DNA from: Bacteroidales bacterium
Lineage (GTDB): Bacteria; Bacteroidota; Bacteroidia; Bacteroidales; UBA932
NCBI GenBank assembly: GCA_031551625.1
Contig: JAVBNJ010000030.1
Coordinates: 1,592 to 65,591 of the forward strand
Direction of reading: 5' to 3'
Length of the DNA: 64,000 nt
In this document: positions 30,118 through 47,974 of the stretch, one piece after another
Layout: each line of letters begins with the position of its first letter
Numbering within the stretch: the stretch's first letter is position 1
Position numbers and translations under genes: made by a program
Notes under the pieces: generated by a model
Database searches by the model: none
What the model saw: the letters and a program-made list of their open reading frames with translations, nothing else
What the model was told of the DNA's origin: nothing

Positions 30118-30148
30118 AAAAACCGGCGGCATGCATGCCGCCGGTTTT
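30118..30148. terminator. bidirectional terminator after the relic ybeY end, at the end of the giant operon
   Basis: AAAAACCGGCGGC-ATGCAT-GCCGCCGGTTTT. GC-rich 8-bp stem flanked by an A-run and a T-run. Confidence 0.75.
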
Positions 30149-30176: not shown

Positions 30177-31553
30177 TTATTGTTGTGTTGATGATGCTAT
30201 TTTTTTCATCACCGTTTTGTTGCGTATGGTAAATGTGGCTTGGAATTTATTATCTTCATCCAGTGCTACTACGCGGTAGGTGCCACCGGGCGACGGCGTG
30301 TCGTCGGAAGCAAAGGTGATGGTAATGTCGCCATTCTCGTTACGCTCAATAGCAGCCGGAGGCGCGCTGGTCAATTGATTGCTGCCAATTAGCGCAGCGA
30401 AGAGGGTTTTGGCATATTGTGTATTCCACGAATTGATAAATTGCGCGGGGATGTGCAATTTGCCTGTGTTGATAGCAACTATTTCAACAGTTGCGCCCAA
30501 CTTGGCAATTTTAACGCCCGATGTCATCAATGCTAATCCGTTAATAAATATTACACTTTCATCTTCACCTTGCTCTGTTCCCAGCGTAATGGTTACCTCG
30601 TAATTTTTTACACCTGTTGTAGAGTTGACAGGGTTGAGTTCTTCGGTAACCTCCCATGTACCTACCAAGTCGGAAACCTTCATAAACATTTCGCATGATA
30701 CAATGGATACAATCTTTGTCGAGCTAGGCACACCAGCGCCCGATGCATTAACACCCGCAACGGTGTAGGAGCCGGTTTCGGTTACTACATAGCTTGCACT
30801 TGTTGCACCTCCGATAGCTTCCCCATTTTTATACCATTGATACGACACCGCATTGGCAACAGGCTGTATAGAGAGTTCCACATTCTTGAGAGGACACATA
30901 TTCTCCGATGTACCTGCTATTTCGCCTGCTGCAACGGGTAACGGACATTGTGTAATGGTAATTCGTTTCTCTATACCGGGAGTTCCCACGCCCATTAAGT
31001 TAACGCCTGCTATGGTATATGCTCCGCTCTCGGTAGCTTCATATACAGGTTCGTTAGTTACAGCAACGGTCGTACCATTTCTGTACCATTGGTACGATGT
31101 AGCCCCTGTAATGGTTGCAGCAGTCAACTCAACCGATATCGATACAGGGCAAACATTAGTGCTTGCTCCACTGATAGCGCCTGCTTCGGCGGGCAATGTC
31201 ATGGCTCTGCCTGATTGTGTAACCGTTATTTCGTGCTTCAGCCCGCCGGTAGCCGTGACGCTTATCGTCCCCGTGCGTTGCGAGGTCGATGTGTTTTCAA
31301 GCGCTGATACGGTAATTATGGTAGCGCCCGCACCACGGGCAGGATTGATCGACAGCCATTCGGTATTGGTTGATTTTACTACAGCCCACTCCACCGGAGT
31401 GTTTACCGTAAAATTTACCGCCGATCCGTTGGCAGGCAGCGTTAGTTGTGCAGGGTCAACCGACAGGCTTACCGCACTCTCGTTATCGCCACTACAGGCA
31501 ACCAGCAACGCCACCAAGCATATCGACATGATATATATTAGATGTTTTTTCAT
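30177..31553 (-). CDS. BACON-domain lipoprotein with two Ig-like repeats
   Basis: Lipobox LLVACSG. BACON-like LSVDPAQLTLPANGSAVNFTVNTPVEWAV...WLSINP...TITV. Two repeats contain YQWY(R/K)NG. Last gene of the giant operon. Confidence 0.7.
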   Translation of the reverse strand: MKKHLIYIMSICLVALLVACSGDNESAVSLSVDPAQLTLPANGSAVNFTVNTPVEWAVVKSTNTEWLSINPARGAGATIITVSALENTSTSQRTGTISVTATGGLKHEITVTQSGRAMTLPAEAGAISGASTNVCPVSISVELTAATITGATSYQWYRNGTTVAVTNEPVYEATESGAYTIAGVNLMGVGTPGIEKRITITQCPLPVAAGEIAGTSENMCPLKNVELSIQPVANAVSYQWYKNGEAIGGATSASYVVTETGSYTVAGVNASGAGVPSSTKIVSIVSCEMFMKVSDLVGTWEVTEELNPVNSTTGVKNYEVTITLGTEQGEDESVIFINGLALMTSGVKIAKLGATVEIVAINTGKLHIPAQFINSWNTQYAKTLFAALIGSNQLTSAPPAAIERNENGDITITFASDDTPSPGGTYRVVALDEDNKFQATFTIRNKTVMKKIASSTQQ

Positions 31554-31598
31554 ATTGTGATTATTATATTTTTTATACTTCTTTTACTTCTAAATCCC

Positions 31599-32459
31599 TT
31601 AATTGGCACCCAACATACTTCCTTTGCCAAAGCTCAGGCGGAGCTTAACACCCACTGCCAGCAAATTCAACTTATCGCTTGATGCAGCAAGGCTTCCGTA
31701 ACCAAAACCATCGGGGTATGATGTAGCCTGATTATTGTACATAACCAGCGCAGAACTCTCGCCTTTATTAATGTTGTTCAAGCCATAGTCGAAATACACT
31801 CCGGCGTACAAGTTCAATGTTTCATTCAATTTAAACTTGAAACCTGCTTCAGCCGACAGCATAAACGCCACATTCAAATCAAGGTCAGACTTCTGGTCTA
31901 CGTCATAAATGCCAAAGCCCTTACCCGGCAAATCATTTGCTCCTATGGGAACAGCCCACGACGGTATATAACCCGTAGTGTTGAGGTTACCCGTTGTTTT
32001 TACCGTTCCGCTTAACGGGATGCCGGCTTTAACGCCCAACGCGCCAAAAAATGCTGTTTTGCCTTGTGTTTGGAACTGTGCCATCAGGGGAATGGTAAGC
32101 ATCATTGCCGATACCTTTTCTTTATAATCGGTGTATGAATACATAAAATCGAATGCACTACCTGACCCCAACACTGCATTGCTTGTGCCGCTGATGTTGT
32201 TGGTAGTAGCCTTGCTGTTGTACATGGCAATGTTGACACCTGTACCCACCGCCCATTGCGGCGCAAAGAAGTAGTGATAACCTACGCCAAATTCGCCACC
32301 GTAGCCGGGGGTATGGCTTACCGAGTTGTAGGAGTATTGCAGCGAAGAAAGCCCGCCTCCACCGTTTACCGAAAACTCGTGACGGTGCTGTTGCGCCATT
32401 GCCGTACCGCACACACATAGTACAAATACCAGTGATATTATTTTATTTTTCATAATCAT
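31599..32459 (-). CDS. outer-membrane beta-barrel protein (porin-like OMP_b-brl family), paralog A
   Basis: Signal peptide ending AMAQQ. It shares HEF..N..GGLS.LQYS, IPLMAQ and Y.G.YFDYGLNNI with 38596-39483. It starts 24 nt downstream of the giant gene. Confidence 0.7.
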   Translation of the reverse strand: MIMKNKIISLVFVLCVCGTAMAQQHRHEFSVNGGGGLSSLQYSYNSVSHTPGYGGEFGVGYHYFFAPQWAVGTGVNIAMYNSKATTNNISGTSNAVLGSGSAFDFMYSYTDYKEKVSAMMLTIPLMAQFQTQGKTAFFGALGVKAGIPLSGTVKTTGNLNTTGYIPSWAVPIGANDLPGKGFGIYDVDQKSDLDLNVAFMLSAEAGFKFKLNETLNLYAGVYFDYGLNNINKGESSALVMYNNQATSYPDGFGYGSLAASSDKLNLLAVGVKLRLSFGKGSMLGAN

Positions 32460-32483
32460 TAATTTTTCTTTTTCAGATAAACA

Positions 32484-35400
32484 TTATTTAACCACCAGTT
32501 TTGTGGAATAGTTTACACCGTTAGGGCCTACCAGTTGCAACACATACACGCCTTGCTGCAGGCCGCTTGCATCAACCGAATTTTCTGCACCATATACCGG
32601 TATATTGCCTTTTACTAATATGCCATTCACATTGTATATGTTGATAACAGAGCCTTCGGAAGCACCATTCATCTTAACGATAAATTTAGTACTTGATTCA
32701 ACAGGGTTAGGATACACTGTTAAAGCAGTGCTACCGGCCGTGTGGCTGAATGGGCAAACGCTAACCGGTTTGTTATCGCTCGTCAACATCTCGCAGTGGT
32801 ATGTGGCGTTAGCTTCGGCTTGAATAAAGGGTTTGGTTGCGCCCAGTATAGCCACTCCGTTTTTATACCATTGGAACGATACAAACGTAAATCCACCATT
32901 GGTTGCGGGGTTGCAGTTAATCATGGGAATATCATCCCATTCGAAAACCATTATTTTATTAGTGCTACTATTCATCGGAATACCTACGCGCAATGTAGCC
33001 ACATCGCTATAGGTACGTTCCGACCGTCCACTAATTACCACGCGGTAGTTGCCGGCATCGGCAAGCGTTGCATTGTTTATTGTTAAATTCTGTGTGTTTG
33101 CACCACTGATATTTTGCCAGCTTGTACCGTTTTGTTTTTGCCATTGGTATGTAACTTCAAGCCCACTTGCTGCGATGTTGAAAGAATGATTTTCGCCACT
33201 ACATACGCTAGCACTCACGGGTTGTTGCGATATAGTGTTGGGCTCCGCTTTTACGGTTAATGTACCATCAACTATTGTAAACGCATAACGGTCGGGCGAT
33301 GTATTGTTCACTACCGGACGGATTGCGTACATGCCAGCTACCGATGTTTCATCAACATCTGTTGTGTAGCTTACCATTGCTGCAATATCGCTTTCCGTAT
33401 CGCCATCCAAATACATGCCGCTAATACCTCCGGTAAACGTCGGGTTCGGTGTATTTTCAGTCCTTTCAGCATTATGGGCAGTTACTGTCATCACCGCTTT
33501 GGCAAACAAACATGTTGCCGGCGACAGTTCCGATTCCATTTCTGCATCGCCGTTGTAGGTGGCGGATATGGTATAGCAATGGTCTCCCGTAAAGGCTGTT
33601 TTATCTTTGAAAGAATGCTCTGTCATAGATTCTATCAAAACACGCCCGCCGCGGTAAAGTTTGTAGGTAGTGGGTTTTACTGCTTCGGTTTCCAATACCA
33701 CCGCCAAGTTCCAGTTAACGCTTATTTGAGATATTGACGATAACGGTGTAAAATCATCGCCTCTAAGCGCAATCAAATCGCCCTTGCCTTCCATAGCAGG
33801 GCCTGCATCGCAACCTGCCACAAACACATTGTCCGATGCGCCACCCGCAGCTTGTATGTAGGAGTAGCTTACCATAAGTTCTTTAGTCACATCCAACGTA
33901 AGCGGATTAGTAAAGATAATACGGTTAAACTGTCCGGCCGTTAGACCTTCCATCGGTTGTGTATAAACAATTTGGCCATTCTGGCGAATGTTCACTTTCA
34001 TAGATTGACCCAACACTTTCGGGAAAAACTCAATCCCCTTAATTTTCGCACCTTGGTAGGACAGCAAGTCACTCATATCAAATAATACGGCTATCTCCAT
34101 TTCGGCAGGCGTACTGGCAGTAACACCAATAGCCGTATAATTTGTACCGTTATCCCAACGCAATAAAGTTGTAGCAGCATCGTCTTGTTTTGATATCTCT
34201 GCTGCACTTGCTCTAGCCGGTGTCGCACTTGTTGTGCTTGTCGAGATCAGTTTATACTTATCGGCCGATAACTTTTGATACGGTGTCAACACTACGTTTT
34301 GTATTGATTTCTCATCCATTTGTTTTTGTTCGGCATCAGGCATGTTGGTATTGCTTGATTCTGCGGCAGATTTCGTAGGATTGATTCCTTTGCTCCAGCT
34401 TACGTTGATGTCTTTCTCATTATCATCGTATACGGCTTGGAAATTGCTGGGGTAGGAGCCGCCCTGTTTTACCAAAACGGTCAACGGATTGCCGCTTGCA
34501 TAAACCGTAATTGCACCGTTGCGCACGGCATCTGTAGTGTTATTGGTGCAAGTAAACGTAAATGTACCCTTGCCTTCGGCGTCAACCGTGCCGTTTTGAG
34601 CACTTGGTATAATCCACGGATCAGTTTCCACTCTCCACGATTTACCGCTGGCGGTAAATGTGACCTCGCCCGTTGTTGCATCAACATCTTTTCTTTTGAA
34701 AGATGTAGCCGATGTAAGTTCGGCGGTAGTGTACGTAAATTCCGGTACAATATTCATTGACAAATAGAATCCTGAAAGCAGTGCAGGTATTGCCATCCAT
34801 GTGTTTTGGTAGTATACATATACTGTACCGTACCCATTACTGCGCGCCTCGGTTGTAGAAACGGCATACGCTCCGCTGGTCGACGATTTGGCAAGTACCA
34901 CATGGAATGCGCCCGAAACGCCCGCCGGTTGCGGGAAGGTAACGGTTGTATAGCCCGAATTATTCAGGTTGGTAACTGTACTCGAAGCAAGCAGCGTACC
35001 CGGCATGCCATTTTTGTCGCTGTAAATACCCACCAACATAACTGGCGTGCCCGACGTTACCAGGGTGTGTACTTTTACACTAGAAATTTCGCCGGTGGCC
35101 GGAGCTACGAAACGCTCAGAAATAAACGCAAAGTAACCTGTACCGGGTGCTATTATATATTCGCTTCCGTCGCTGTAATATTGCGTGGGGTCTTCACCTT
35201 GTTGCACGTTCCACACCTCGGCAGTACCGCCCACTTTAATATAGTCGGGAATGGTAAGCTCACTTGTTCCGGCAGTATTTGTGGCTTTAAATGTTACCGG
35301 ATAGGTGTTTTTTCCTTCGGGATATCTCACTTCAAACAACCGGCTGGTTGAGGTAGCAGGATCTGCCCCCGGCAACTCCCATTCAAACGATTTGGGATAG

Positions 35401-38400
35401 TTTCTTGTTGTATCCTGATAAATGACCCGGCCTCCTGTAAGCGGCAGAAATTGCCCATAGTTTGATTTCATCGTAAACCCATTTGAGTACGACAGGAATG
35501 TGGGGATGGGTTTTTGAGCTTTTACGGTTACAACGCCATCAAAGGTTTTGGTGTTTTCTCCAAAGTTATTGGCTACTTTTAGCGTAGCGCTGTAAACCCC
35601 GTTGTTCATATATTTTGCCGTAGGATTTACTTCGGTAGTTGTTTCGTTGTTGCTGCCGGGCAATGTCCAACTCCATGACACGGGAGGCCCCGACGATAAA
35701 TCGGTAAAGCTTACGGTTTCTCCTTCGTTGATTTCAATTTTGCCGCTGGGGTTGGGCGTAAACACGCGCACACCGTCAATCCCAATGTGGAAACCGCCAT
35801 TACCCTTTACCTGCCAGGCAAATTTCAATGTTTTTCCGTTGTAACTACTCAAGTCAATAGTTTGCTTGCGCCATTGGTAGCCCATAGTCGTGTTCGCGTT
35901 TCCGGCAGTCCAAACTTGATCCCACGTAACGCCGTCATCCGAAGAGATGTAAAGCATGATGGTCATATTTGCCAATAATGTGCCTGAGTACTCCGTGTAA
36001 AACTCCATTTTTGTCGTAGCATCGGTAATGCTTACAGCAGGCGACTTCAGCCAAGTGTCAACCATATTTGAACCGGATTCGGCAACTACCAAAGCCGAGA
36101 AAACGCTTGTAGGGTCTATTGTGCTAAAGAAATAGTTCTGCACATTGTTCTGCACCCATTGCGAGTTGCTTGTTCCGGGCTTTTCAATCACCCAACCTGC
36201 AGGTGGAAAAGCTTTTCTTACATCAAATCCTTCTTTTAATAAGTTACGCTCTGTAAGAGCTGTAAATTCAGCCACCGGAGCATCGGCGGCACCACACGAT
36301 TTCTCAAATTTGATTTTTACATTCGGGCGATTGTCGTTTACCGTACCACTCACCATAGGCAGCGCTTGTCCATTGCCCACCCATTGCATGTGGGCATTAG
36401 TAGTTGTTGTGTAGTAACACTTAGAAGAAGTACTGATAACTGTGCCCGTGGCACGCACCATAATCTTCAAATTCTTTGTACCACTATAGTTAAAAGGCAT
36501 AGTAAGCTTAATTGTTGTCCATCCGGCATCGTTAATCCAGTATGCCGAACTTTGATACACCAGTGTGGCGCCCGCTATTTCATTGAGCCATGTGTTACCT
36601 TCGGCAGCAAACGTAGCATTGTCAACCTCTTTTATATACACATACAGCGTGCGGGCATAAGCCGTTGCCAAGCCAGCGTTCCACGCAATTTCGGTAATTG
36701 ATCCGGGCGTTGAACCCAATTCCCCAGGCGTATAAATTGAAGAGCTGAGCGTGTGCAAATCCGTTGCACCGAAGGGGAAGGGGCTTTCGCCCGTACCTGT
36801 TCCAATATTCAGTATATCGGTACATGTTTTTTGTTTTTGTAGCACTGTTATGGTTTCCGATACTGACGATTCTTTTTCTGTTCCTTTATTAATAACAAGT
36901 TTAGCTTCGTAAGTACCCGGCGTATTGTAGGCAATAACAGGTGGGATTTTTCCACTGAATGATGATGGCGAACCGCCCGCAAATAGCCAATCCCAAGTGG
37001 TTGCAGCAGTCGATACATCCTTAAAGGTTACCGACTCCGAAGCATATATTTCCGATTTACTAACCATGAAAACTGCCACAGGGTCTATACCGGCGCTATA
37101 TGTACCATCAATATATTCTAATCCTGTCCCTCTCGGGTCAAGATAATCTTTCATCTTTTGGGCACTTTGGTCCCAATGATACCAAAGCTTTCCGTATAAA
37201 TTTTGGTAGGTAGGGTTATTACATGACGACGAGCCACCCGTAAGCGTACCCACCACCCGCTTGTTTTGGTCGAACAACGGAGAACCCGACGAACCTTGCT
37301 CGGTAATACCATGTCCGTTTTGCGTGGCTGCAAAAAATATTTGCCAGTGCGCATTAGTTGCACCAATCTCGCCGGATGACATGACTGCAGTAGTAGTGTT
37401 GGCCGGTACTACGTATGTTGATATTTTTTTGATGTCGCCCGTCGGGTGGTGAATACCCACGCCACTTTCGGCCGCAATATTGCGCCTGTCCCATCCATTA
37501 AAATACACATTATAACTCTCAGGGATAGGTTCGTTCAAGCGGAGCAACGCACCATCGGCCCCACCGTTTAACGGAACGTCAACCAACATCGTTGCACCTA
37601 CAATGGTGGGTGCGTCGGGGTCGTAGCCCGACGCGCTTTTACAACCCGGCGCCTCATAATGGAAGTAATAAATAGTTTGATTGTGATACCTTTCAGGCAA
37701 ATCCATGTAACAGTGGTGAGCACTGAGGAATAACGGGTCGAGGTTTTGTGCCGTATTATTTATAAGCGTACCGCTGCAAAGGGCAAAACCTTGTTCAGTC
37801 CTTGTAAGAATACGGGCTACCCCTTTCTTTTGGTCTTGCCAATTATCACCTTCGGGACAATTCACATTCACCTCGCAGGCACCCGAAGGCCAGTTGATTT
37901 TAAAATCACTCCCTCTCAACTCCATGTGGTTGTATCCATAGCCAATGCCCGAAATCACAATGCGAGGCTTATCGGCAGTGCTGCCATCAACCGTTATTTG
38001 TTGCTTCCTGATTTGCGTAGAACCCGCAATAGGCGTGTCTTTCAGTCCATCGGAAAGCGGTTCGGCATATTCCAAAATTACCTCATCGCCCCCTATTAAC
38101 TCGGTAGCATACTCGGCGCGCTTGGGGTTGTTCTTCGACGTGTAGGCCCCCAGAACCTTCGAGTGGCTGGGGTTATAGATAAACAATTTTCCACCCGCAG
38201 GGATAACAAATTCATCATACGTAAGCAATATACCCAGTGCATTAGGTGCTTTGACTGATAAGCGCCAGATGCGTTGTCCGGAGGGTAAAGTAGTCCACTC
38301 TCCGGAATTTTCCATGGTCATGTGCACAGGAATAATTTGGGCAATGCGCAACGGGTATCCCATTGCTTCCAGCTTTGCATCTTCTGCTTTCAATGCAGCT

Positions 38401-38588
38401 ATATCAAAGTCTACCGGGATTTGTTTGGTTGTCAGACTTTGTTTGCTTATACTTTTGTCAGAAAAACTTGGTGGCGTACCCCCTTCACTAATTTGTGCAT
38501 TAGCGGGCGTAAGCCATATTACTGCCATCAACAGCAATACTATTTTTAGAAAAGAATTGTATCGTTTCATAGTTAAATTTATTTTCAT
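32484..38588 (-). CDS. giant (2034 aa) T9SS-secreted multidomain protein with an N-terminal trypsin-fold serine endopeptidase (lysyl-endopeptidase-like)
   Basis: Signal peptide. Catalytic motifs CSGTLI...LSAHHC, DGALLRL and GSSGSPLFD. PKD/Ig-like and beta-sandwich repeats follow. The C-terminal Por sorting domain is TVYPNPVESSTKF...GVYVLQLV...STKLVVK. Confidence 0.85.
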   Translation of the reverse strand: MKINLTMKRYNSFLKIVLLLMAVIWLTPANAQISEGGTPPSFSDKSISKQSLTTKQIPVDFDIAALKAEDAKLEAMGYPLRIAQIIPVHMTMENSGEWTTLPSGQRIWRLSVKAPNALGILLTYDEFVIPAGGKLFIYNPSHSKVLGAYTSKNNPKRAEYATELIGGDEVILEYAEPLSDGLKDTPIAGSTQIRKQQITVDGSTADKPRIVISGIGYGYNHMELRGSDFKINWPSGACEVNVNCPEGDNWQDQKKGVARILTRTEQGFALCSGTLINNTAQNLDPLFLSAHHCYMDLPERYHNQTIYYFHYEAPGCKSASGYDPDAPTIVGATMLVDVPLNGGADGALLRLNEPIPESYNVYFNGWDRRNIAAESGVGIHHPTGDIKKISTYVVPANTTTAVMSSGEIGATNAHWQIFFAATQNGHGITEQGSSGSPLFDQNKRVVGTLTGGSSSCNNPTYQNLYGKLWYHWDQSAQKMKDYLDPRGTGLEYIDGTYSAGIDPVAVFMVSKSEIYASESVTFKDVSTAATTWDWLFAGGSPSSFSGKIPPVIAYNTPGTYEAKLVINKGTEKESSVSETITVLQKQKTCTDILNIGTGTGESPFPFGATDLHTLSSSIYTPGELGSTPGSITEIAWNAGLATAYARTLYVYIKEVDNATFAAEGNTWLNEIAGATLVYQSSAYWINDAGWTTIKLTMPFNYSGTKNLKIMVRATGTVISTSSKCYYTTTTNAHMQWVGNGQALPMVSGTVNDNRPNVKIKFEKSCGAADAPVAEFTALTERNLLKEGFDVRKAFPPAGWVIEKPGTSNSQWVQNNVQNYFFSTIDPTSVFSALVVAESGSNMVDTWLKSPAVSITDATTKMEFYTEYSGTLLANMTIMLYISSDDGVTWDQVWTAGNANTTMGYQWRKQTIDLSSYNGKTLKFAWQVKGNGGFHIGIDGVRVFTPNPSGKIEINEGETVSFTDLSSGPPVSWSWTLPGSNNETTTEVNPTAKYMNNGVYSATLKVANNFGENTKTFDGVVTVKAQKPIPTFLSYSNGFTMKSNYGQFLPLTGGRVIYQDTTRNYPKSFEWELPGADPATSTSRLFEVRYPEGKNTYPVTFKATNTAGTSELTIPDYIKVGGTAEVWNVQQGEDPTQYYSDGSEYIIAPGTGYFAFISERFVAPATGEISSVKVHTLVTSGTPVMLVGIYSDKNGMPGTLLASSTVTNLNNSGYTTVTFPQPAGVSGAFHVVLAKSSTSGAYAVSTTEARSNGYGTVYVYYQNTWMAIPALLSGFYLSMNIVPEFTYTTAELTSATSFKRKDVDATTGEVTFTASGKSWRVETDPWIIPSAQNGTVDAEGKGTFTFTCTNNTTDAVRNGAITVYASGNPLTVLVKQGGSYPSNFQAVYDDNEKDINVSWSKGINPTKSAAESSNTNMPDAEQKQMDEKSIQNVVLTPYQKLSADKYKLISTSTTSATPARASAAEISKQDDAATTLLRWDNGTNYTAIGVTASTPAEMEIAVLFDMSDLLSYQGAKIKGIEFFPKVLGQSMKVNIRQNGQIVYTQPMEGLTAGQFNRIIFTNPLTLDVTKELMVSYSYIQAAGGASDNVFVAGCDAGPAMEGKGDLIALRGDDFTPLSSISQISVNWNLAVVLETEAVKPTTYKLYRGGRVLIESMTEHSFKDKTAFTGDHCYTISATYNGDAEMESELSPATCLFAKAVMTVTAHNAERTENTPNPTFTGGISGMYLDGDTESDIAAMVSYTTDVDETSVAGMYAIRPVVNNTSPDRYAFTIVDGTLTVKAEPNTISQQPVSASVCSGENHSFNIAASGLEVTYQWQKQNGTSWQNISGANTQNLTINNATLADAGNYRVVISGRSERTYSDVATLRVGIPMNSSTNKIMVFEWDDIPMINCNPATNGGFTFVSFQWYKNGVAILGATKPFIQAEANATYHCEMLTSDNKPVSVCPFSHTAGSTALTVYPNPVESSTKFIVKMNGASEGSVINIYNVNGILVKGNIPVYGAENSVDASGLQQGVYVLQLVGPNGVNYSTKLVVK

Positions 38589-38595
38589 AGGATTT

Positions 38596-39483
38596 TTATC
38601 TGAAAGCTATGCGTGCCTTGATACCAATGGTCATGAGATTAATTTTATCAACTCCCACGCCATTCGTTGCCGATTGCAGTGCACTGTTGTAGCTGTAAGG
38701 AGCAGTTGCACCTTTGTATACCACCATTGTGTTACCGCTTGGGGTGTAAATGTTATTCAACCCATAGTCGAAATAGGCGCCGGTGTAGAGTTGCAAGCGG
38801 TCGGTCAATCGCCATTTCATACCGGCTTCGAGTGCCAACATGCATGTGAACTTCAAATCCAAATCGCCATCGTACGAAGGATTGGCAAGGATTCGGAAGC
38901 CAAGCGATTCGTCGGTATACGTTTCGCCCGTGTATTTCGACTCGCCTGTAACTGCCAGTGAAGTTGCGTCAGCCTTGTATGTCGACGTTAACGGAATACC
39001 AAATTTGAAACCCGCTGCGGCATAAAACTGATTTTTCGCTACAGGCAATGAATACTGCGCCATTAACGGAATGTTGAGGTACATGGCCGATTGTTTTTCT
39101 TCATAAGATGCATAATCACCATGGATAAAGAATCGAGTGTCGCTCCCCGGAGGAGGCGTTGGTGTAATGGGCGGCGAGGGTATTTCGTAACTCTCGCTCA
39201 CCGCATCGGCTTTAAACGTGCTGTTGTAAAACGCAAGGTCAAGACCCGTTGTAAAGCCCCATGTTTCGGTAAAGTTGTAGGTATAGCCAAGCCCGAAACC
39301 GCCGCCAAAGCTGCTACTGCGCGAACCTGTGGAAACGCTGTATTGCAGGGTTGACAAGCCGCCCGAAGCATTAAACATAAACTCATGCGGAGTAGTTTGC
39401 TTCTCCTGTATCACGTCTTGTTCCTGTGCCGTAGCAACGGAGGCAAGAAACAGACTGAGTATTGTAATGTATATTTTTTTCAT
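38596..39483 (-). CDS. outer-membrane beta-barrel protein (porin-like OMP_b-brl family), paralog B
   Basis: Signal peptide ending ATAQEQ. It is a paralog of 31599-32459. It starts 22 nt downstream of giant gene 39506-45967 and ends 7 nt upstream of giant gene 32484-38588. Confidence 0.7.
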   Translation of the reverse strand: MKKIYITILSLFLASVATAQEQDVIQEKQTTPHEFMFNASGGLSTLQYSVSTGSRSSSFGGGFGLGYTYNFTETWGFTTGLDLAFYNSTFKADAVSESYEIPSPPITPTPPPGSDTRFFIHGDYASYEEKQSAMYLNIPLMAQYSLPVAKNQFYAAAGFKFGIPLTSTYKADATSLAVTGESKYTGETYTDESLGFRILANPSYDGDLDLKFTCMLALEAGMKWRLTDRLQLYTGAYFDYGLNNIYTPSGNTMVVYKGATAPYSYNSALQSATNGVGVDKINLMTIGIKARIAFR

Positions 39484-39505
39484 ATTTTCTTTCTTGATGG
39501 TTAGG

Positions 39506-42500
39506 TTACTGTACTACGATGTTGAATGTTTTCTTTTGTCCGCTTCCCGATATAATTTGCAACACATATGCACCTGACGCTTCTGGCGCTTTAATAGTTG
39601 ACGTATAGTCAGCAGGCATATCAACCTGCAATACACCTTGCATGTTATATAGGCGGATACGTGCACCTTTCTGCTCGTTTTCATCCAAATACGAGTAAAC
39701 ATTGAGCGGATTGCCTGCTTTTACCGGATTGGGAAATACTTGCATATCCTGTGTTGTTGCAACTGTCGGATTAAGCGCACAAGTGGACACTGTAGTGCCA
39801 TCGCTGGTAGTTAAGAGCACGGTATAATTTGATGTGGCTGCATTGGGGCGTTTGCTGAGGTACAGCGTACTCCTGGTTTCACCGTCAATTGCTACACCGT
39901 TTTCGTACCATTGGAAACCGGTAAACGTATAGCCGCCATTGTGTGCAGGCACGTTAATAATCGATAGTACATCGTCCCACAATTGCGCTATTACTTGCGA
40001 TGCTGCAAACGGGCGTATTACGTTTACCATGTAATCTTTGGTGGTAGTTCCATCCGAAGCCAGGGAGCGAACTATAATTGCCGTATGCATATCTGTAGCT
40101 GTATACGGCATACTCACCGGTGTATTATTTACAAGATACGACACCGTGCCACCTGCCTGCGCTGTGGCCGCAATGTTTACATTGCTGGCGTCACAAGGCA
40201 AGTTAAGCGTGTATTGTGTAACGTTGGCATCAAATGCCGGCGACAACGCTCCGTTGCCTGTATCATTTATCAAGCCGGTTAATGCAGCGTCGGCCGTAGG
40301 TAGCGCCGTAAAGGTTGCCTCGATCAGATGGTTTGCATTGATGTTGGCAAACACGTAACTGCCGCTGTTTATAGCATCGGCATTGCTTACGCCATCAATT
40401 TGTACATCTTGTATTTTAAAACCTGATGCAGGCGTAACGGTATATGCTTTACTGCTGCTGTAGGTTACTGTGGTAGCACCTGCAGGCGATATGCTACCGT
40501 TAGCTCCGGCATTAGCCGTTATGCTGAAAACCTTCCGCTCGAACGTTACATTGATAGTATGATCTGCTGTGACGTTGGTAAATGTATAGCGACCTGCTTT
40601 AGCAGAATCGGGAACATTTACACCGTCAATTAACACTTGCGAGGTTTTGTACCCCTCAGCAGGTGTAAAGGTGAAAGCATAGTTGTTGCCATAACTTACA
40701 GTTTGCACTGCACCGGGCGATATGCTGCCGTTAGCACCTCCTGTTGGTGTAAGGCTAAACGTGGGAATCACACAATCGGTGGTCATGCAAACTCTGTCGG
40801 ACTCGAAACCATAATTACCACAAATAGCTGCGACACAATAGGTATGCGTACCCGCGGTAATTCCGCTATCATCAGTATAGGTTGTTACGGTAGCGTTTGA
40901 CGCAATTTTTACACCATCGCGATACACATTATAACTTCCACTGCCTACTAATGGTGCCGTCCAGCCTAATCCTATTTTAAATTGACCATCATACGGATAG
41001 TTGATAAGGTTTATACCCGACGGCTGCGCGCATTGCGGCGCAATGGCAACATCGTCAATCAGTATATTATTTCCGCCCATACCAACACCCTCGATAATTA
41101 CATACGCTGATGTGGGAATTGCCGAACAGTCGAGATTGACACGGTATTGATACCAGCCCTCTTTCTCAACTACGGGCGACAAAACGGAACTACGGTGAAC
41201 AGTGGCCAATGGAGTAAGACCCGTGATATCGGGCGTTGCACTCAAGTAGATGTTTACCGAGTCGGGTTTTTGACCACTACCTGGAGAGGCATCGTAATTA
41301 TCACGATACATCCAGAAGGCAAGCACATAGTCGGTTTTAGCGGTAGAGAAGGCCGGCGTAATTACCAAACCTTTTGTACCTGCGAGATATGACGGACAAT
41401 TGAATAGCAACATATATGGACCTGTATGCGGACCTGTATGCGGCACTCCCGACAAAGCAATCTGACGAATAAAGCTATTGCTTATTGGAGTTGTCCAGCA
41501 AAGCGGTGGAAATTTTGCTTTATCAAAACTTTCATATATTTCTTCAAACGGTGTAGCACAGGGTATTTCGAGCATATCTACTACTACAGGTTCGGTTTTT
41601 GCCGACTCGCAATAACCGTTGTTCCATACGGTTGATAAGTGGTAGGTATAGGTGCCTTGCCCCGGTACTGAATCTAAATGCATGAAGCCCTTGATAGGAT
41701 TGGCTGTCAGAAGAGAGTCGTCGCGATACAGATTATACCCTACAGGGAAAGTTTCGCTACCATGAATGATAAATGGCATACCTTGGCTTGCCCCACTGTG
41801 CGCGTCTTTCAAATCTTGCCACCAAAATACAGGATGCAAATCGTCTTTTGGCATTTGCTGTTTGGCATTTCCGGTTGCCTCCTGCCCTTTAATGGCAATG
41901 GGCACACCCCATGTTTGCGCACCGGTTTGGGGGGTTGCACCCGGTGCACTTAAGCTGTAGCGCACCCAGTACGTTCCGGCGAGAAGCTCGGTATTAATGG
42001 TTGCCGTAATTTTCATAATGGGGCGCTCGGTATTTTGCATATCCGACGGACGAACCCTGTATATCCCTGTAAACTCCGTCGACTTCAAATAACTTTTATC
42101 TTCATTTCCCCAAATAATTTTACCATCTGCCGATGGGTCACCATCATATATCAACACGTTGATAGCGCGGAAGGTTGAAGTCGTCCCTGAGTTAGTTACA
42201 AACCCGAAGAAATCGATATCCGTAATAAACGTTGGCGCGGTGAGTGTAAAATCGTCGGCAATGGCATAGTGTGACGAGTGCGTGTTGGCATAGCCCGGCG
42301 TGGTATTGGTTTCGGTGGTAGCACTCACATCTGCCCCCCCTTTGCCCGCTCCGGCATCGGTAACTAGTTTCGCTTCGTCAAGAATAACTGTTTCGCCCAT
42401 CGGGTCGGGCAACCCCCATGTCATTTGCACGTTGTACCACTCCGGCTCGTGCAGTTCCAAAGCTGTAAGGTCTTTCGGCAAGTTGCATGCGCCCGGCGTA

Positions 42501-45500
42501 GCAATGGTAACCGATGTGCAGGTTTGCTTCGATACGCCGCAGGAGTTATTATAGAGCGCCTCGACACAATAATTGTGTACGCCCGGATCCACTCCGGCAT
42601 CGGTATAAGTAGTTTGGGTTACGGTGGCGAGGAGACCATTATCGCGATAAACATTATAACCTGTTGTATTATCGGAGCCGTCCCATGTCAGCACCACTGT
42701 ATTTTGTTCTTTGATGTAGCCGCCTAAATTCTCAGCCGGCGGGCAAATTTCTCCCACCTCAATGACATCCAACATCACACCGCTACCACATCCGATAGCT
42801 CCTTCAAAAGCAATCCAATAAGTAGCAGAGGGATCTGGTAAGGCCAGGGATTTATGCACCCATGTCGTAATATTAGCAGAATATTCCGCTAACATAATCC
42901 ATTCGGCAGCTGCCGAATTTTTATAATATATCCGCAAGGTGTCTTGACTTGTTCCACTAGCCTTTTGGGCATGCCAGAAGCTAACCATCGGATTAGCTAA
43001 ATTACTAATATCAAAGAGCGGTAAAATAAGCTTTGTCTTAGCACCCTTATTACTTGCCAATCCACTCACAAAACGAAGTTTGTAATTGCTATTATCGGGA
43101 GTCGTTGCCGGCACACCAATTGCTTTTTCAGCCACGCTCCAAGCAAGACCTTTCGCATCTTTTTCCTGTATCCAGCACGAAGGGATAGCATTTCCCTCAA
43201 AGCCTTCGGAGAAAGGAGCAACCGTCGCGATTTCGCAAGGGTTAATAGGCATAACAACTTCATGAGTAGTTTTGTCGGATTCGATGGAAGTACCGTAAAT
43301 CGCCGAAATACCATAAGTATAAGTACCTTGCCCGGGAGCTATATCCACATAACTACGATTAGTAATTACATCGGCATTTAATTTCACATCGTCCCTGTAT
43401 ACATTATAGCCGGTAACATCAGTTGCCAAAGACCAGCCATTAAGGATAAACGGCAAAGTCGTCGGAGACCCACCAGAGGTCCAGTCTTTCCATGTATTGT
43501 TCCTAAACTCATACGTTTTAGCATTACCAATTTTTGCAATACCATTAGCATTCATAACCGGTATAGTAAAGGGTCCATTAGCCGACATTGTCCCATCGGC
43601 CGATAATTCAACCCAATAGGTTCCCGGAGCCAGCTTAAGGTTATCAATAAACACTTTGACCCGCATAATAGGGCGCTGGTTATTCAACATACCCCCTCCC
43701 AACGTTGTAGTGGTTCTATAAATATTTGTAAATGAAGCCGACTCAAACCGGTTGGTACTCCTGTCGCCCCAAACCACACGGCCACCTGCCGAAGGATCGC
43801 CATCATATATAGTCACACAGGCTTTGTTAATTGTAGGGGTTATTCCCGAGCCTGTTTGGTGGGCATAAAATTCAAGGGACGATAATACGGTTTCTTGGGT
43901 TACAGTAAAATCATCGGCAATAGTATAAGTTCCCACCTGAAAATTTTCCCAAGCCCTTGGAGATGGAGAACTAACATCGTAGAAACTAACATCAGCGCCA
44001 CCAAAGCCCGCTCCCGGATGAGTCATAACAGGCCCGTTATTAAAAATTTCCGTAGCAGCGGTACCTTCATTGTCTTCAATAGTTATATCCCAATTCAAAT
44101 GGACATTATACCAGTTCGGGTTGTGAAGCTCCGAAACGATATTTTCAGGAGCAAGATAGGTAAGTACATTTACGTCTGTACATACGTCAGCCGATTCGCC
44201 TGCACGGTAAACAGCTTTTACGCAATAACTATGACTTCCACCTGATAGATTCATGTCGGTGTAGGTTAAAGCCGTTGTGGTGGTTAAAGCCGACCCGCCC
44301 CGATAGATGGCATAAGATACCGGATCGACATCTGCCGGTTTCGTCCAGCTTAAAGTCACATTTCTACCCTCTACTGATCCTGCCAAGTTACCCACCACAG
44401 AAAGAGGTTCTCCAGCCTCAATTGTAATATTATCCAATTGCACACCATTTCCTAGTCCACAAGTATGCTCAAAAGCAATCTGGTAATTTGCCGATGGGTT
44501 AGGCAACGCAATAGCTTCGGCCGACCATTTTTCGGCAGCCGTTGGAGAATTATAAGAAACATAAGGTGTCGGCGTATTGTATTCTCTCAAAAATGTCCAA
44601 CTACTAGCGCTACCGGATGCTTTGTAGTAAACCCGTAATGTATCCATGTAGGGAACGGTAACGGGGGTTGTGTTGCGGATGGCTTGTCCACGATAAAAAG
44701 AAATAGTCGGACATTCCAATGTGCTGATATCCACCATCGGCATTATCAATTTTGTTTTGACCCCTGTAGCAGTAGCAGCTGTTTTACTTGGAATATAAAC
44801 TTTCCGGGCACCGGTAGTAGTACCATCCGGAACACAGTTCGGAACTCCCGAACTATAGCTTGTTGTTGTCCATTCAATATTATTAGCATCTTTTTCCTGT
44901 GTCCAGCACTCCGACGGAAGGACCGTACCGCTGGTTGATTGAAATCCTTCGAAGTAAGGGAAAGTTCTTATAGGGTCGTCGCATGCCCATATTGGCATTT
45001 CAACGGTATGGGTAGTCGGAGTCGACTCGCAAGAACTGTAAACAGCTGTTACGCCGTATGTATAAGTACCGTTACCGGACGGTGTCAAATCCGTATAACG
45101 GCGGCCTGTAACCGGCTCCGTATTCAACTGTACATTATCCCGGAACACATTATATCCCATTACGTCGGAAGCGACTGTTTTTCCATAAAGCGTAAATGCC
45201 AGTGCCACTCCTTTATTATTATTAGATGTCCAAGCAGCCCATGTTCTTGAAGAAACAGTATAGACTTTAGCATTACCTTCCTTTGTGGTATTGTCGGCAT
45301 TCATGGCCGATTTTATATTAGGGTCTAAGGTCGCGTTATTTTTTACAGCTATTTCAATCCAATAAGTACCGGCTGCTAGGGGTAAATCGCTAAAATTGGC
45401 TCTAACCTTCATAACCGGATAACTTGTGTTTGTAGGAGTGCTCGTAGGTACGTGATATACATTGGCACGCTCAGCCGACTCCAGGCAATCGTCCGCTCTA

Positions 45501-45967
45501 TCGCCCCAAACAATAGCTCCGCCGGCCGACGGATCGTCATCGTAAATAACAACATACACTTCTTGGACATTTGCCGTGTTAAAAGTGTTATTCAAATAAA
45601 TATAAAATTCTACTGCCGACAGAACGGTCTCCTGCGCTAACACAAATTTATCGGCAATAGCATACTTTTCTGCCTTACATGACTTATAGGGCGTTTGGGT
45701 AGGAGTAGTGGTATACGCAGACACCGTATTCCCCTGACTATTAGTACCAGTAACAATCCCCCCATTGTCAAAAATGGTCGTAGTGGAGGCGCTTACTGTG
45801 GAAGCCCCCGTAGGCAACGACCACTGCAACTGAAGGTTGTACCAACTCGGTTGGTGCGTTAGGTTTGCTGTCACGCTTGCCGGGGCATTGCACGACTGAG
45901 AATAAGCCACATTGAATGCCGCAGCAAGTGCCAGCCAGCAAACAAGTGTTGTAATGATTTTTCTCAT
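39506..45967 (-). CDS. giant (2153 aa) T9SS-secreted repeat protein or adhesin
   Basis: Signal peptide. Three tandem modules of about 560 aa (WYN beta-sandwich, FN3-like GYNV(F/Y)RD..TYTYG, MAM/choice-of-anchor-like FEGF..CW..KTKL..DTLR(V/I)YYK). Two Listeria-Bacteroides-type repeats (GANGSISP). A cadherin-like domain. C-terminal Por sorting domain VFPNPVKAGNPL...GAYVLQII...FNIVVQ. Confidence 0.85.
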   Translation of the reverse strand: MRKIITTLVCWLALAAAFNVAYSQSCNAPASVTANLTHQPSWYNLQLQWSLPTGASTVSASTTTIFDNGGIVTGTNSQGNTVSAYTTTPTQTPYKSCKAEKYAIADKFVLAQETVLSAVEFYIYLNNTFNTANVQEVYVVIYDDDPSAGGAIVWGDRADDCLESAERANVYHVPTSTPTNTSYPVMKVRANFSDLPLAAGTYWIEIAVKNNATLDPNIKSAMNADNTTKEGNAKVYTVSSRTWAAWTSNNNKGVALAFTLYGKTVASDVMGYNVFRDNVQLNTEPVTGRRYTDLTPSGNGTYTYGVTAVYSSCESTPTTHTVEMPIWACDDPIRTFPYFEGFQSTSGTVLPSECWTQEKDANNIEWTTTSYSSGVPNCVPDGTTTGARKVYIPSKTAATATGVKTKLIMPMVDISTLECPTISFYRGQAIRNTTPVTVPYMDTLRVYYKASGSASSWTFLREYNTPTPYVSYNSPTAAEKWSAEAIALPNPSANYQIAFEHTCGLGNGVQLDNITIEAGEPLSVVGNLAGSVEGRNVTLSWTKPADVDPVSYAIYRGGSALTTTTALTYTDMNLSGGSHSYCVKAVYRAGESADVCTDVNVLTYLAPENIVSELHNPNWYNVHLNWDITIEDNEGTAATEIFNNGPVMTHPGAGFGGADVSFYDVSSPSPRAWENFQVGTYTIADDFTVTQETVLSSLEFYAHQTGSGITPTINKACVTIYDGDPSAGGRVVWGDRSTNRFESASFTNIYRTTTTLGGGMLNNQRPIMRVKVFIDNLKLAPGTYWVELSADGTMSANGPFTIPVMNANGIAKIGNAKTYEFRNNTWKDWTSGGSPTTLPFILNGWSLATDVTGYNVYRDDVKLNADVITNRSYVDIAPGQGTYTYGISAIYGTSIESDKTTHEVVMPINPCEIATVAPFSEGFEGNAIPSCWIQEKDAKGLAWSVAEKAIGVPATTPDNSNYKLRFVSGLASNKGAKTKLILPLFDISNLANPMVSFWHAQKASGTSQDTLRIYYKNSAAAEWIMLAEYSANITTWVHKSLALPDPSATYWIAFEGAIGCGSGVMLDVIEVGEICPPAENLGGYIKEQNTVVLTWDGSDNTTGYNVYRDNGLLATVTQTTYTDAGVDPGVHNYCVEALYNNSCGVSKQTCTSVTIATPGACNLPKDLTALELHEPEWYNVQMTWGLPDPMGETVILDEAKLVTDAGAGKGGADVSATTETNTTPGYANTHSSHYAIADDFTLTAPTFITDIDFFGFVTNSGTTSTFRAINVLIYDGDPSADGKIIWGNEDKSYLKSTEFTGIYRVRPSDMQNTERPIMKITATINTELLAGTYWVRYSLSAPGATPQTGAQTWGVPIAIKGQEATGNAKQQMPKDDLHPVFWWQDLKDAHSGASQGMPFIIHGSETFPVGYNLYRDDSLLTANPIKGFMHLDSVPGQGTYTYHLSTVWNNGYCESAKTEPVVVDMLEIPCATPFEEIYESFDKAKFPPLCWTTPISNSFIRQIALSGVPHTGPHTGPYMLLFNCPSYLAGTKGLVITPAFSTAKTDYVLAFWMYRDNYDASPGSGQKPDSVNIYLSATPDITGLTPLATVHRSSVLSPVVEKEGWYQYRVNLDCSAIPTSAYVIIEGVGMGGNNILIDDVAIAPQCAQPSGINLINYPYDGQFKIGLGWTAPLVGSGSYNVYRDGVKIASNATVTTYTDDSGITAGTHTYCVAAICGNYGFESDRVCMTTDCVIPTFSLTPTGGANGSISPGAVQTVSYGNNYAFTFTPAEGYKTSQVLIDGVNVPDSAKAGRYTFTNVTADHTINVTFERKVFSITANAGANGSISPAGATTVTYSSSKAYTVTPASGFKIQDVQIDGVSNADAINSGSYVFANINANHLIEATFTALPTADAALTGLINDTGNGALSPAFDANVTQYTLNLPCDASNVNIAATAQAGGTVSYLVNNTPVSMPYTATDMHTAIIVRSLASDGTTTKDYMVNVIRPFAASQVIAQLWDDVLSIINVPAHNGGYTFTGFQWYENGVAIDGETRSTLYLSKRPNAATSNYTVLLTTSDGTTVSTCALNPTVATTQDMQVFPNPVKAGNPLNVYSYLDENEQKGARIRLYNMQGVLQVDMPADYTSTIKAPEASGAYVLQIISGSGQKKTFNIVVQ

Positions 45968-46035
45968 AGATCTGATTTTTTTATGGTTAAAAATTATAGG
46001 TTTTTATTAAAATATTGTATGATTTTTATTAAACA

Positions 46036-46043
46036 CAAAGGTA
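46036..46043 (-). promoter_or_regulatory. -7 promoter box for the giant T9SS operon
   Basis: TACCTTTG on the minus strand, 69 nt upstream of ATG 45967. Confidence 0.4.
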
Positions 46044-46201: not shown

Positions 46202-47974
46202 ATGCATTACTTGCCTTCCTTAAAAATTGCTCTACTAAAAAAAGTCTATTGTTTTTTATTGGTGAATATAATTTTGGGAGCTATGCCATTTAAATTAATA
46301 GCCGACAATCAATTAGAAAAATTTACCATAATCGCCAAGGAAGTCGACAGTCTCAGTAAACTACATGGAACAAAAGCGCGTTTATTACTCAAAGACCTAT
46401 ACCAAATAGCCGGTAATCACCCCGATAGCATAGTTTTAAAACAAGAATGCTTATACCGCGAAGCCGAGTTAGGCTATGCACAAGGTGTTTACGACTCGAC
46501 TATTAACAGATTGATAAAAAAAGAATTACAATATATCAATCCGCTAAAAGATACTTTTCACAATGCAATGTTACAGTATTCTTTTGCATTAAACCAATAC
46601 CTGAAGGGGAGTTATGGCGAAGCATTTACGTTGGCCCTATACGCCATGGAGCAATTCGAACAACTGAAAAACAACCAGTTTACTATTAAAACGCTCATGA
46701 TTTTAGGACGTATTTGTATTTCTATCGAAAGTTACAAGATGGCGGAGGAATATTACAATAAAGCCTTGGAATACATGGATAGATTGCATCCGGATTATTA
46801 TCAAATACGTTCCAATATCGTTTATATTACATTAGTCCGTTCCGGCCATCTCGAGGCAGCCACAGATTCTTTGATTAAGTACATTTCTATATTTGAAGCG
46901 AAACAAGATACGGCACAGCTAATCGGTAGCTATTTAAATATCAGCAGTATTTACCATCTAAAAAACGAACACGAGAAAACACGGTACTATTATACTGCCA
47001 CTCACAAATTGATTCAAGCAATAGATAACGTTCGCTATTCCGTTGTATTTTACCAAGGTTTTGGTGTTTATCAAATCATGGAAAATAACCTGCGTGCAGC
47101 CTATCAAAATTTTCACCTGGCAAAAACATTTGCCGAAAACTCTGGAAGTCCGGATCTACTAATTTTTCCATTTGAATCATTAGCTCATATTCACGAAAAA
47201 TTAAATCATATCGACAGCGCTTACTTTTATGTAAAACAATACAATGCTGTAAAAGAAAAAATTCTGAAAGAGGCAAATCCTATAGAAGCTTACCGGTCAT
47301 ACATTTCTGTTTTTTTAGAAGCGTCAAAACAAGAATTAATTATTAAAGAACAGGAAATATTGTTAAAGAACAGGCTTGTCATTGTTATGACTATTTCTGC
47401 CGTTGGAATCATTTTGCTAATTGTATCATGGTTAATCATACTACAACAACAAAAACGCCACAGTCACCAACAAGCATTACTCAAAGAAACCGAAAATAAA
47501 GAATTGGAAGAACGACTGCAAAGTAAATTATTGAGTGAGCAACTACAAACCGAACGAATCAATGCGCAAACCCGTGAACTTACCAGCTATTCCCTGGCGC
47601 TTTCCAACAAAAACAGTATCTTGCAACAAATTTCCAGTGCCATTCAACGGCTTCCTAATGACCCTAGAGCGTCGGACGATATTCAAAAAATGATTAAAAA
47701 TAATCTGAATATAGACGGCGCGTGGGAGGATTTTGTATTGCATTTCGAAAAAGTGCATCCAAGTTTCTTCAACCGGATTAAAACCATTTGCAATACACTT
47801 TCAGAAAATGATCTTCGGCTATGCGCCTATTTTAGAATTGGCATGTTAGCAAAACAAATTGCTCAAATACTTAATGTATCGCCCGAATCTATAAAAATGC
47901 ACCGCTATCGCATTAAGAAAAAACTTAATCTTTCGGAAGACGAAAATCTCGATGATTTTATCCGGAATATATAG
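46202..47974 (+). CDS. TPR-repeat sensor/regulator with a TM helix and a C-terminal LuxR-type HTH
   Basis: N-terminal hydrophobic segment, TPR-like region, TM VIVMTISAVGIILLIVSWLIIL, a coiled coil, and the LuxR HTH LSENDLRLCAYFRIGMLAKQIAQILNVSPESIKMHRYRIKKKL. Confidence 0.8.
   Translation: MHYLPSLKIALLKKVYCFLLVNIILGAMPFKLIADNQLEKFTIIAKEVDSLSKLHGTKARLLLKDLYQIAGNHPDSIVLKQECLYREAELGYAQGVYDSTINRLIKKELQYINPLKDTFHNAMLQYSFALNQYLKGSYGEAFTLALYAMEQFEQLKNNQFTIKTLMILGRICISIESYKMAEEYYNKALEYMDRLHPDYYQIRSNIVYITLVRSGHLEAATDSLIKYISIFEAKQDTAQLIGSYLNISSIYHLKNEHEKTRYYYTATHKLIQAIDNVRYSVVFYQGFGVYQIMENNLRAAYQNFHLAKTFAENSGSPDLLIFPFESLAHIHEKLNHIDSAYFYVKQYNAVKEKILKEANPIEAYRSYISVFLEASKQELIIKEQEILLKNRLVIVMTISAVGIILLIVSWLIILQQQKRHSHQQALLKETENKELEERLQSKLLSEQLQTERINAQTRELTSYSLALSNKNSILQQISSAIQRLPNDPRASDDIQKMIKNNLNIDGAWEDFVLHFEKVHPSFFNRIKTICNTLSENDLRLCAYFRIGMLAKQIAQILNVSPESIKMHRYRIKKKLNLSEDENLDDFIRNI

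Follow-up and report, generated by a model that had tools for sequence, protein, structure and literature searches.

Among type IX secretion system (T9SS) substrates, those with a type-A C-terminal sorting domain (CTD) rely on PorV as their general carrier, after which they are released or become attached to lipopolysaccharide (LPS), whereas type-B substrates have dedicated carriers, namely genetically linked PorP/SprF proteins by which they are anchored (PMC10202324, 2023; PMC12618676 and PMC12635249, November 2025). In the type-B systems, such as SprB/SprF of Flavobacterium johnsoniae and PG1035 with its PorP-like partner in Porphyromonas gingivalis, cargo and barrel genes are linked one to one, the partner is thought to retain the cargo on the cell surface, and several cassettes per genome are possible. 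One-to-one linkage and more than one cassette were likewise found in the locus described here, which lies in a stretch of 64,000 nucleotides from a termite-gut bacterium of the Bacteroidales (GenBank assembly GCA_031551625.1, contig JAVBNJ010000030.1, positions 1,592 to 65,591; this whole stretch is referred to as the window) and in which each of two giant T9SS cargo genes is followed by the gene for a small outer membrane barrel. In contrast to the type-B systems, the CTD here is of type A (TIGR04183), the barrel is a small OmpA-like protein of family PF13568 with no match to PorP/SprF, an immunoglobulin (Ig)-like domain in front of the CTD tracks the partner, and the gene order is cargo and then barrel.

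A similar idea is embodied in the PorZ-PorQ and PorU-PorV pairs of the T9SS attachment complex, where type-A-like CTD proteins stay bound to an outer membrane barrel and are not set free (PMC10202324). In those pairs, however, the barrels are PorV-like, and the proteins belong to the secretion machine and occur once per genome; they are not cassettes tied to one cargo whose passengers vary. PorT/SprT, a PF13568-type small barrel needed for the T9SS, belongs to the same broad Pfam family, and two homologues of the barrels studied here carry the NCBI name "PorT family protein". In contrast to these barrels, PorT/SprT is a single-copy core factor unlinked to cargo genes, and in this comparison by name and models no T9SS component model matched the barrels of the window. 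The first-pass annotation of the window had stated that one-to-one pairing of cargo with an outer membrane protein is known for type-B cargo with PorP/SprF-like proteins and is not known to occur for type-A cargo with this family of outer membrane proteins. The three papers cited above agree with that statement in giving dedicated partners only to type-B substrates, and a full-text search of the literature found no paper connecting PF13568 or PorT-family barrels to type-A cargo genes.

Two giant type-A cargo genes are each followed by a small barrel gene

Both cargo genes and both barrel genes are on the minus strand. Cargo 1 (positions 39506-45967) is a repeat protein of 2153 amino acids (aa) that carries a signal peptide and, by Pfam and NCBIfam, three MAM and five RGI_lyase-like stretches as well as one cadherin-like domain, followed by an Ig-like domain directly before the CTD, referred to here as the pre-CTD domain, and a type-A CTD. 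Cargo 2 (32484-38588; 2034 aa) has a trypsin-fold protease domain (Pfam PF00089, residues 266-466) together with choice-of-anchor J, PKD, BACON, MBG and Ig domains, and also ends in a pre-CTD domain and a type-A CTD. The NCBIfam model of the T9SS type-A sorting domain, TIGR04183, matched cargo 1 and cargo 2 with 29.2 and 35.8 bits, respectively, against a cut-off of 23, and the score of cargo 1 was 37.1 bits when its tail was scanned alone. The Pfam model PF18962 matched cargo 2 with 33 bits. The CTDs occupy residues 2077-2153 of cargo 1 (39509-39739) and residues 1958-2034 of cargo 2 (32487-32717). By their C-termini both proteins are therefore T9SS type-A cargo, as the first-pass annotation had read them. 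Similarity between the two giants was confined to approximately the last 170 aa, with 32% identity.

Barrel 1 (38596-39483; 295 aa) and barrel 2 (31599-32459; 286 aa), located behind cargo 1 and cargo 2, respectively, matched the outer membrane barrel family PF13568 (OMP_b-brl_2) with 52.9 and 52.7 bits against a Pfam cut-off of 27. They were 36% identical to each other over their full length (E=8e-49), which bears out their earlier designation as paralogues. When Pfam and NCBIfam models of PorP/SprF (PF11751 and TIGR03519), PorV, PorQ and other T9SS components were run against the two barrels, neither was matched at E<=0.1, so that the reported lack of a PorP/SprF signature was confirmed.

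The barrel gene is coupled to a type-A cargo gene in other genomes

Homologues of barrel 1 (113 proteins) were aligned (alignment A1), and the alignment was used to fetch 80 loci from contigs of one genome per species; 129 of 134 pattern matches were confirmed. Genes in these loci were called by our own simple selection of open reading frames (ORFs). Background counts were obtained with hidden Markov models (HMMs) of the CTD and the pre-CTD domain which were trained on the same cargo class and may under-detect other CTDs; independent NCBIfam and Pfam scans concurred on the paired set.

In the 80 loci and the window together, a CTD gene was found immediately upstream on the same strand for 73 of the 86 barrels that had an upstream gene in view. 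The gap between cargo and barrel had a median of 21 nucleotides (nt) and was no longer than 60 nt in 61 of the 73 pairs, and in 19 pairs the two genes overlapped by 4 nt in an ATGA-type coupling. When the C-termini of close upstream genes on the same strand were scanned, TIGR04183 was found in 70 of 79 (NCBIfam) and PF18962 in 67 of 79 (Pfam). A type-B CTD (TIGR04131 or PF13585) was represented among these 79 cargoes by a single weak CHU_C match. Only three matches to the CTD model occurred among approximately 760 other genes of the same loci, a background of approximately 0.4%. Since 73 of 86 barrels were paired with a CTD gene compared to three matches among approximately 760 other genes, the barrel family is clearly enriched next to T9SS cargo, which is what the neighborhood check proposed in the first-pass annotation was meant to establish. 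The same pairing was seen in approximately 70 further genomes, which belong to two phyla. Full-length paired cargoes had a median length of 1332 aa (258 to 2731 aa), and the genes downstream of the cassette varied among loci.

Two unusual members of the family were inspected individually. The barrel P0105, which carries a SPOR domain, has a truncated upstream gene that contains both a pre-CTD domain and a CTD. P0202 (796 aa) was considered as a natural fusion of cargo and barrel and was rejected, as a cargo-like ORF without a CTD runs into a barrel that retains its own signal peptide. The upstream part of P0202, which comes from the representative library, contains glycine-rich repeats, and the protein is probably a merged, broken or decayed gene call or cassette.

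Paired cargoes share an Ig-like domain before the sorting domain

Alignment of the last 260 residues of the upstream proteins revealed a conserved domain of approximately 90 aa directly before the CTD, with the consensus F.F..IV..KWNN.L.V.NNP.TNGGY.F..YQW[FY]KNG..IG....YSAG.....L.....Y.V.LTT.DG....TC. This pre-CTD domain was present in 71 of the 73 barrel-paired cargoes. In cargo 1 it spans approximately 88 aa (39752-40015, minus strand; W-DDVL..N.P..NGGYTF..FQWYENG...Y.V.LTT.DG...TC) and in cargo 2 it lies at 32721-32963 (minus strand), and the two copies are 41% identical. No Pfam or NCBIfam family spans the domain, and weak matches to Ig_2 and Ig_3 were obtained in nine and five of the 73 sequences, respectively. 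In many cargoes a cadherin-like domain precedes it. The N-terminal passengers were otherwise unrelated, except in close relatives: cargo 2 is collinear with the cargo of locus L050 over most of its length, and has only the two ends in common with the 863-aa cargo of locus L040.

One cysteine near the end of the pre-CTD domain was invariant in an alignment of 15 sequences (A4), and a second conserved cysteine was seen in the preceding cadherin-like domain of many cargoes. Together, the two may form an intramolecular disulfide. A disulfide between the pre-CTD cysteine and the barrel was ruled out, as mature barrel 2 contains no cysteine, and no conserved cysteine was found in the barrels.

A reverse sample of 80 loci was collected from metagenome contigs through the pre-CTD domain alone, using alignment A4. 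In these loci a family barrel was located downstream of none of 17 CTD proteins without the pre-CTD domain compared to 25 of 56 CTD proteins with it. Because of this difference, the barrel almost always implies the pre-CTD cargo class, and cargoes of this class are not always accompanied by a barrel in cis.

Arrays of pre-CTD genes with no barrel after them include rumen-type tandem pairs of approximately 1075 and 1095 aa, which are followed by argS or trpS. Such tandem pairs were seen in rumen and gut contigs (loci L082-L089, L094, L099, L100, L123 and L140). In two arrays that were inspected (L123 and L139) the N-terminus of the next gene reads like argS.

The barrels are a distinct OmpA-like subfamily

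An AlphaFold2 model of barrel 1, built from alignment A1, had a mean predicted local distance difference test score (pLDDT) of 88 and a predicted template modeling score (pTM) of 0.80. The best matches of this model in the PDB by Foldseek were the OmpA transmembrane domain, Ail, NspA, OmpW, OprG and OpcA, and OmpX was also among the top matches, which had E-values of 1e-7 to 1e-4. FadL-type barrels were poor matches (TM 0.17-0.21, probability 0.5-0.8), and the barrels agreed neither with a FadL-like 14-stranded barrel nor with the HMMs of the PorV-PorQ family. The DSSP pattern of barrel 1 had short turns at residues 71-74, 149-150 and 226-229, and its longest strands were approximately 30 residues long. 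Because of these turns, and because both termini are required to be periplasmic, the model suggests eight membrane strands with one short and three long surface loops, a topology read from the DSSP pattern and not from coordinates. With this strand count, the barrels fit the small N-terminal barrel of the OmpA family. The first-pass annotation had called the two proteins generic OMP_b-brl porin-fold proteins; this description was too loose, as they form a distinct subfamily of OmpA-like small barrels.

The OmpA family combines an 8-stranded barrel with a peptidoglycan-binding domain. The latter (PF00691) was absent from both window barrels by Pfam. The genome loci contained 40 homologues with a length of 400 aa or more; 39 of these had the domain at the C-terminus, and 30 of the 40 were paired with cargo. 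Approximately half of all barrel homologues bear this additional domain, and in some members of the wider protein set it is replaced by SPOR. Compared to OmpA proteins, the window copies thus lack the OmpA domain, and the present barrels have very long strands and hairpins, conserved rim motifs and a nearly constant coupling to a T9SS cargo gene. The motifs YN.K near residue 86, YEEKQ near residue 127 and DYGLNN at residues 239-244 (alignment A1) are conserved across phyla. In the predicted topology they would lie at the extracellular ends of strands, where conservation is unusual for an outer membrane protein and would be in keeping with a ligand that is conserved.

When 1.84 billion representative proteins were searched with a profile of the barrel family, 3527 were recovered at E<=1e-3, and 1019 at the stricter limit of E<=1e-30. 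The family comprises approximately 1000 clusters at 50% identity in two phyla.

A joint model places the cargo tail relative to the barrel

The cargo 2 and barrel 2 genes share a reading frame, with one TAA and eight codons between them (32460-32486). In the genome loci, 21 of 73 cargo-barrel pairs, about a quarter, were in frame. Because only one stop codon intervenes in this shared frame, the natural read-through chain was modeled; it was composed of the C-terminal 175 aa of cargo 2, a linker of nine residues and barrel 2 including its signal peptide. Alignment A5, used for this model, contained 22 equally in-frame pairs from other loci as well as unpaired rows. The model reached a pLDDT of 92 and a whole-chain pTM of 0.81 over 470 residues. 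Its cargo tail was composed of beta-sandwiches, and the Foldseek matches were tandem Ig ectodomains. By our estimate, a pTM of approximately 0.6 would be expected if the barrel were confident and the cargo domains were placed freely. Since the observed value was 0.81, the model appears to place the cargo tail confidently relative to the barrel; this is suggestive only, and the model does not indicate which face of the barrel is contacted.

Barrel 2 and the pre-CTD domain of cargo 2 had the same nearest relatives (loci L040, L050, L044 and L053), and those of the cargo 2 CTD were L040, L050 and L044. Barrel 1 and the tail of cargo 1 were both nearest to L001.

The cassette occurs in Bacteroidota and Fibrobacterota

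The cassette was found in Bacteroidales from termite and cockroach guts, including Candidatus Azobacteroides and Symbiothrix, and also in Dysgonomonas, Prevotellaceae, Paludibacteraceae and Tannerellaceae. It was further present in 12 Flavobacterium species and Sinomicrobium, in one metagenome-assembled genome of Cytophagaceae, and in nine Fibrobacterota genomes from Candidatus Fibrimonadaceae and relatives (loci L011, L027, L028, L030, L036-L038, L066 and L079). The Fibrobacterota barrels were 33-40% identical to barrel 1 (most 35-40%), approximately as close as many Bacteroidales copies. Their cargoes have kept the pre-CTD domain and have a divergent C-terminal domain. Among the carriers of the cassette are the laboratory strains Dysgonomonas gadei ATCC BAA-286, D. 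hofstadii DSM 104969, Flavobacterium pectinovorum DSM 6368 and F. araucananum DSM 24704. This distribution, together with retention of the pre-CTD domain beside a divergent CTD, suggests horizontal spread of the cassette, with putative cross-phylum transfer in termite guts.

The two cassettes are expressed together with a BACON lipoprotein gene

The fifth gene of the locus, located behind barrel 2, encodes a 458-aa protein (30177-31553, minus strand) in which both the lipoprotein signal (LLVAC|S) and the BACON domain of the predicted BACON lipoprotein were found. The ORF coordinates agreed exactly with the earlier layout of five minus-strand genes with spacers of 22, 7, 24 and 45 nt. Upstream of cargo 1, direct reading confirmed the presence of the proposed promoter sequence, a candidate Bacteroidota -7 box of the TAnnTTTG type (TACCTTTG, 46036-46043, minus strand). 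At the other end, an intrinsic-terminator-like hairpin of 13 pairs (eight of them G-C) followed by a T tract is present at 30119-30148 on the minus strand.

A public metatranscriptome from an invertebrate gut was found to contain the locus. One RNA contig (30117-35103) joins the lipoprotein, barrel 2 and cargo 2 genes, and another (36173-41534) joins the cargo 2, barrel 1 and cargo 1 genes; further RNA contigs cover 35234-36193, 41516-43707, 43727-44192 and 44169-45981. RNA coverage ends at the foot of the hairpin (30117) and at 45981, which is 14 nt upstream of the first ATG. Over 46429-47000 the metatranscriptome had zero depth, and a DNA run of the same study covers this stretch. The divergent regulator gene at 46202-47974 had no RNA contigs, with zero depth over the same interval, in a metatranscriptome in which the operon was well covered. 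Because RNA-derived contigs bridge all four junctions, expression of the five genes in situ as one unit behind one candidate promoter, as the first-pass annotation had assumed, gains support, and the cassettes are co-transcribed with the BACON lipoprotein gene; such contigs bridge junctions but cannot prove a single molecule. The lipoprotein was ruled out as a member of the conserved cassette because the genes downstream differ among other loci. It contains two YQWY[KR]NG Ig-like repeats (approximately residues 150-176 and 234-282) with a partial match to the pre-CTD HMM.

Discussion

The findings above make a functional partnership between cargo and barrel very likely. We consider it somewhat better than an even chance that the barrel is the cognate surface anchor of its cargo and that it acts through the pre-CTD domain. 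The locus contains two copies of a conserved two-gene cassette. Its gene A encodes a T9SS cargo with a variable N-terminal passenger and a fixed C-terminal module, made of the Ig-like pre-CTD domain of approximately 90 aa and the type-A CTD, and its gene B, tightly or translationally coupled to gene A, a predicted 8-stranded OmpA-like outer membrane barrel from a distinct PF13568 subfamily. From what is established for the domain, the type-A CTD would lead to export of the cargo by the T9SS. The pre-CTD domain, alone or together with the CTD, may then dock on the cognate barrel, either at its conserved extracellular rim or at its long hairpins, by which the giant protein would be kept on the cell surface. 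In approximately half of the family, the periplasmic OmpA peptidoglycan-binding domain would in addition tie the adhesin to the cell wall. The first-pass annotation had suggested that each type-A giant has a private anchor or export partner. The neighborhood enrichment and the non-PorP/SprF nature of the barrel are in line with the private pairing; the anchor or export role itself is inferred, and structural support for it is confined to the whole-chain pTM of 0.81 of the joint model.

Several observations weigh against an anchor. PorU-mediated attachment to A-LPS already anchors type-A cargo, and an extra anchor is not obviously needed. In the metagenome loci, a family barrel directly followed approximately 35 of the 73 evaluable pre-CTD arrays, leaving approximately half without one. 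An orphan barrel with an OmpA domain, P0045 (L162, 8001-9497), is located after an enolase gene and before an SNF2 helicase gene without any cargo, and is possibly an ancestral housekeeping form. In a Mantel (mirror-tree) comparison of barrel and tail distances over 69 pairs, the correlation was r=0.14 for the pre-CTD domain (p=0.02) and r=0.19 for the CTD (p=0.004). Because these correlations, though significant, are weak over all 69 pairs, co-evolution of barrel and cargo, as it may be judged from such distances, is not well supported. In addition, what speaks for binding of cargo and barrel is indirect, the joint model being a prediction judged by its whole-chain score.

Other explanations of the pairing were weighed against the same evidence. 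Chance adjacency, or an annotation artifact of generic PF13568 proteins near abundant CTD genes, might be expected from the breadth of that Pfam family and from the many CTD proteins in Bacteroidota, but the pairing of 73 of 86 barrels over a background of approximately 0.4%, the specificity of the profile (in 1.84 billion representatives, 3527 matches at E<=1e-3, but 1019 at E<=1e-30) and the RNA contigs that span the junctions refute it and leave it with a negligible probability. A more serious candidate is that the barrel serves as a dedicated carrier or export partner without lasting anchorage, either by receiving cargo from the SprA translocon, as a substitute for PorV or jointly with it, or by a PorT-like role in biogenesis. 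The same synteny would be expected under this explanation, a high whole-chain pTM could equally mean that the barrel binds the CTD, and two homologues are named "PorT family protein" by NCBI; moreover, there is a precedent in type-B cargo, which requires cognate, genetically linked PorP/SprF shuttles (PMC12618676, PMC10202324). Yet the known carriers PorV, PorQ and PorP/SprF are larger, FadL-like proteins, and the barrel model matched FadL poorly (TM approximately 0.2) and OmpA, Ail and OmpW best. No T9SS component model matched the barrels, the barrel tracks the pre-CTD domain and not the CTD, and a static tether accounts better than a mobile shuttle would for how often the barrel is fused to a peptidoglycan-binding OmpA domain. 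On this evidence we regard a carrier as unlikely, at perhaps one chance in a handful.

We give still less credence to the explanation that the barrel is an ordinary OmpA-type structural protein, which would be co-expressed with the cargo so as to stabilize the outer membrane, or the connection between this membrane and the cell wall, and would make no contact with the cargo. The OmpA-like fold, the OmpA domain in about half of the family, orphan members in housekeeping contexts and the weak co-variation are all in its favor. However, the barrel is found almost only behind pre-CTD cargo in two phyla, and in many pairs the stop codon of the cargo gene overlaps the start codon of the barrel gene. 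The conservation across phyla of the rim motifs YN.K, YEEKQ and DYGLNN is likewise unusual for surface loops, given the predicted topology, and the pTM of 0.81 of the joint model also argues for contact with the cargo.

Returning to the barrel as a cognate anchor, a broader form of this reading can be put forward tentatively and with odds somewhat short of even. It would amount to a third mode of dealing with T9SS cargo. The pre-CTD domain may be a second targeting signal in a subclass of type-A cargo, read by a private OmpA-like barrel that would fasten giant adhesins and enzymes to the outer membrane and, in many species, by way of that membrane to peptidoglycan; the two genes would form a portable cassette that is placed on unrelated passengers and has been exchanged between Bacteroidota and Fibrobacterota in termite guts. 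That a cargo can have a private barrel is in itself a known principle. What is new is the class of cargo, the family to which the barrel belongs, the signature provided by the pre-CTD domain and the connection with domains that bind peptidoglycan.

Judged from the pairing, one class of T9SS cargo seems to have a dedicated partner that has so far not been described and is probably an anchor. The conserved barrel identified here, specific to a subset of type-A cargo that can be defined, would supply an anchoring route that has been missing and, if true, would account for how proteins as long as 2700 aa are kept in place under load. The pre-CTD domain provides a sequence signature for predicting surface-retained cargo, and the arrangement suggests that tail and barrel could serve as a compact tag for surface display. 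As the cassette is present in Dysgonomonas and Flavobacterium species that can be cultured, the idea is directly testable.

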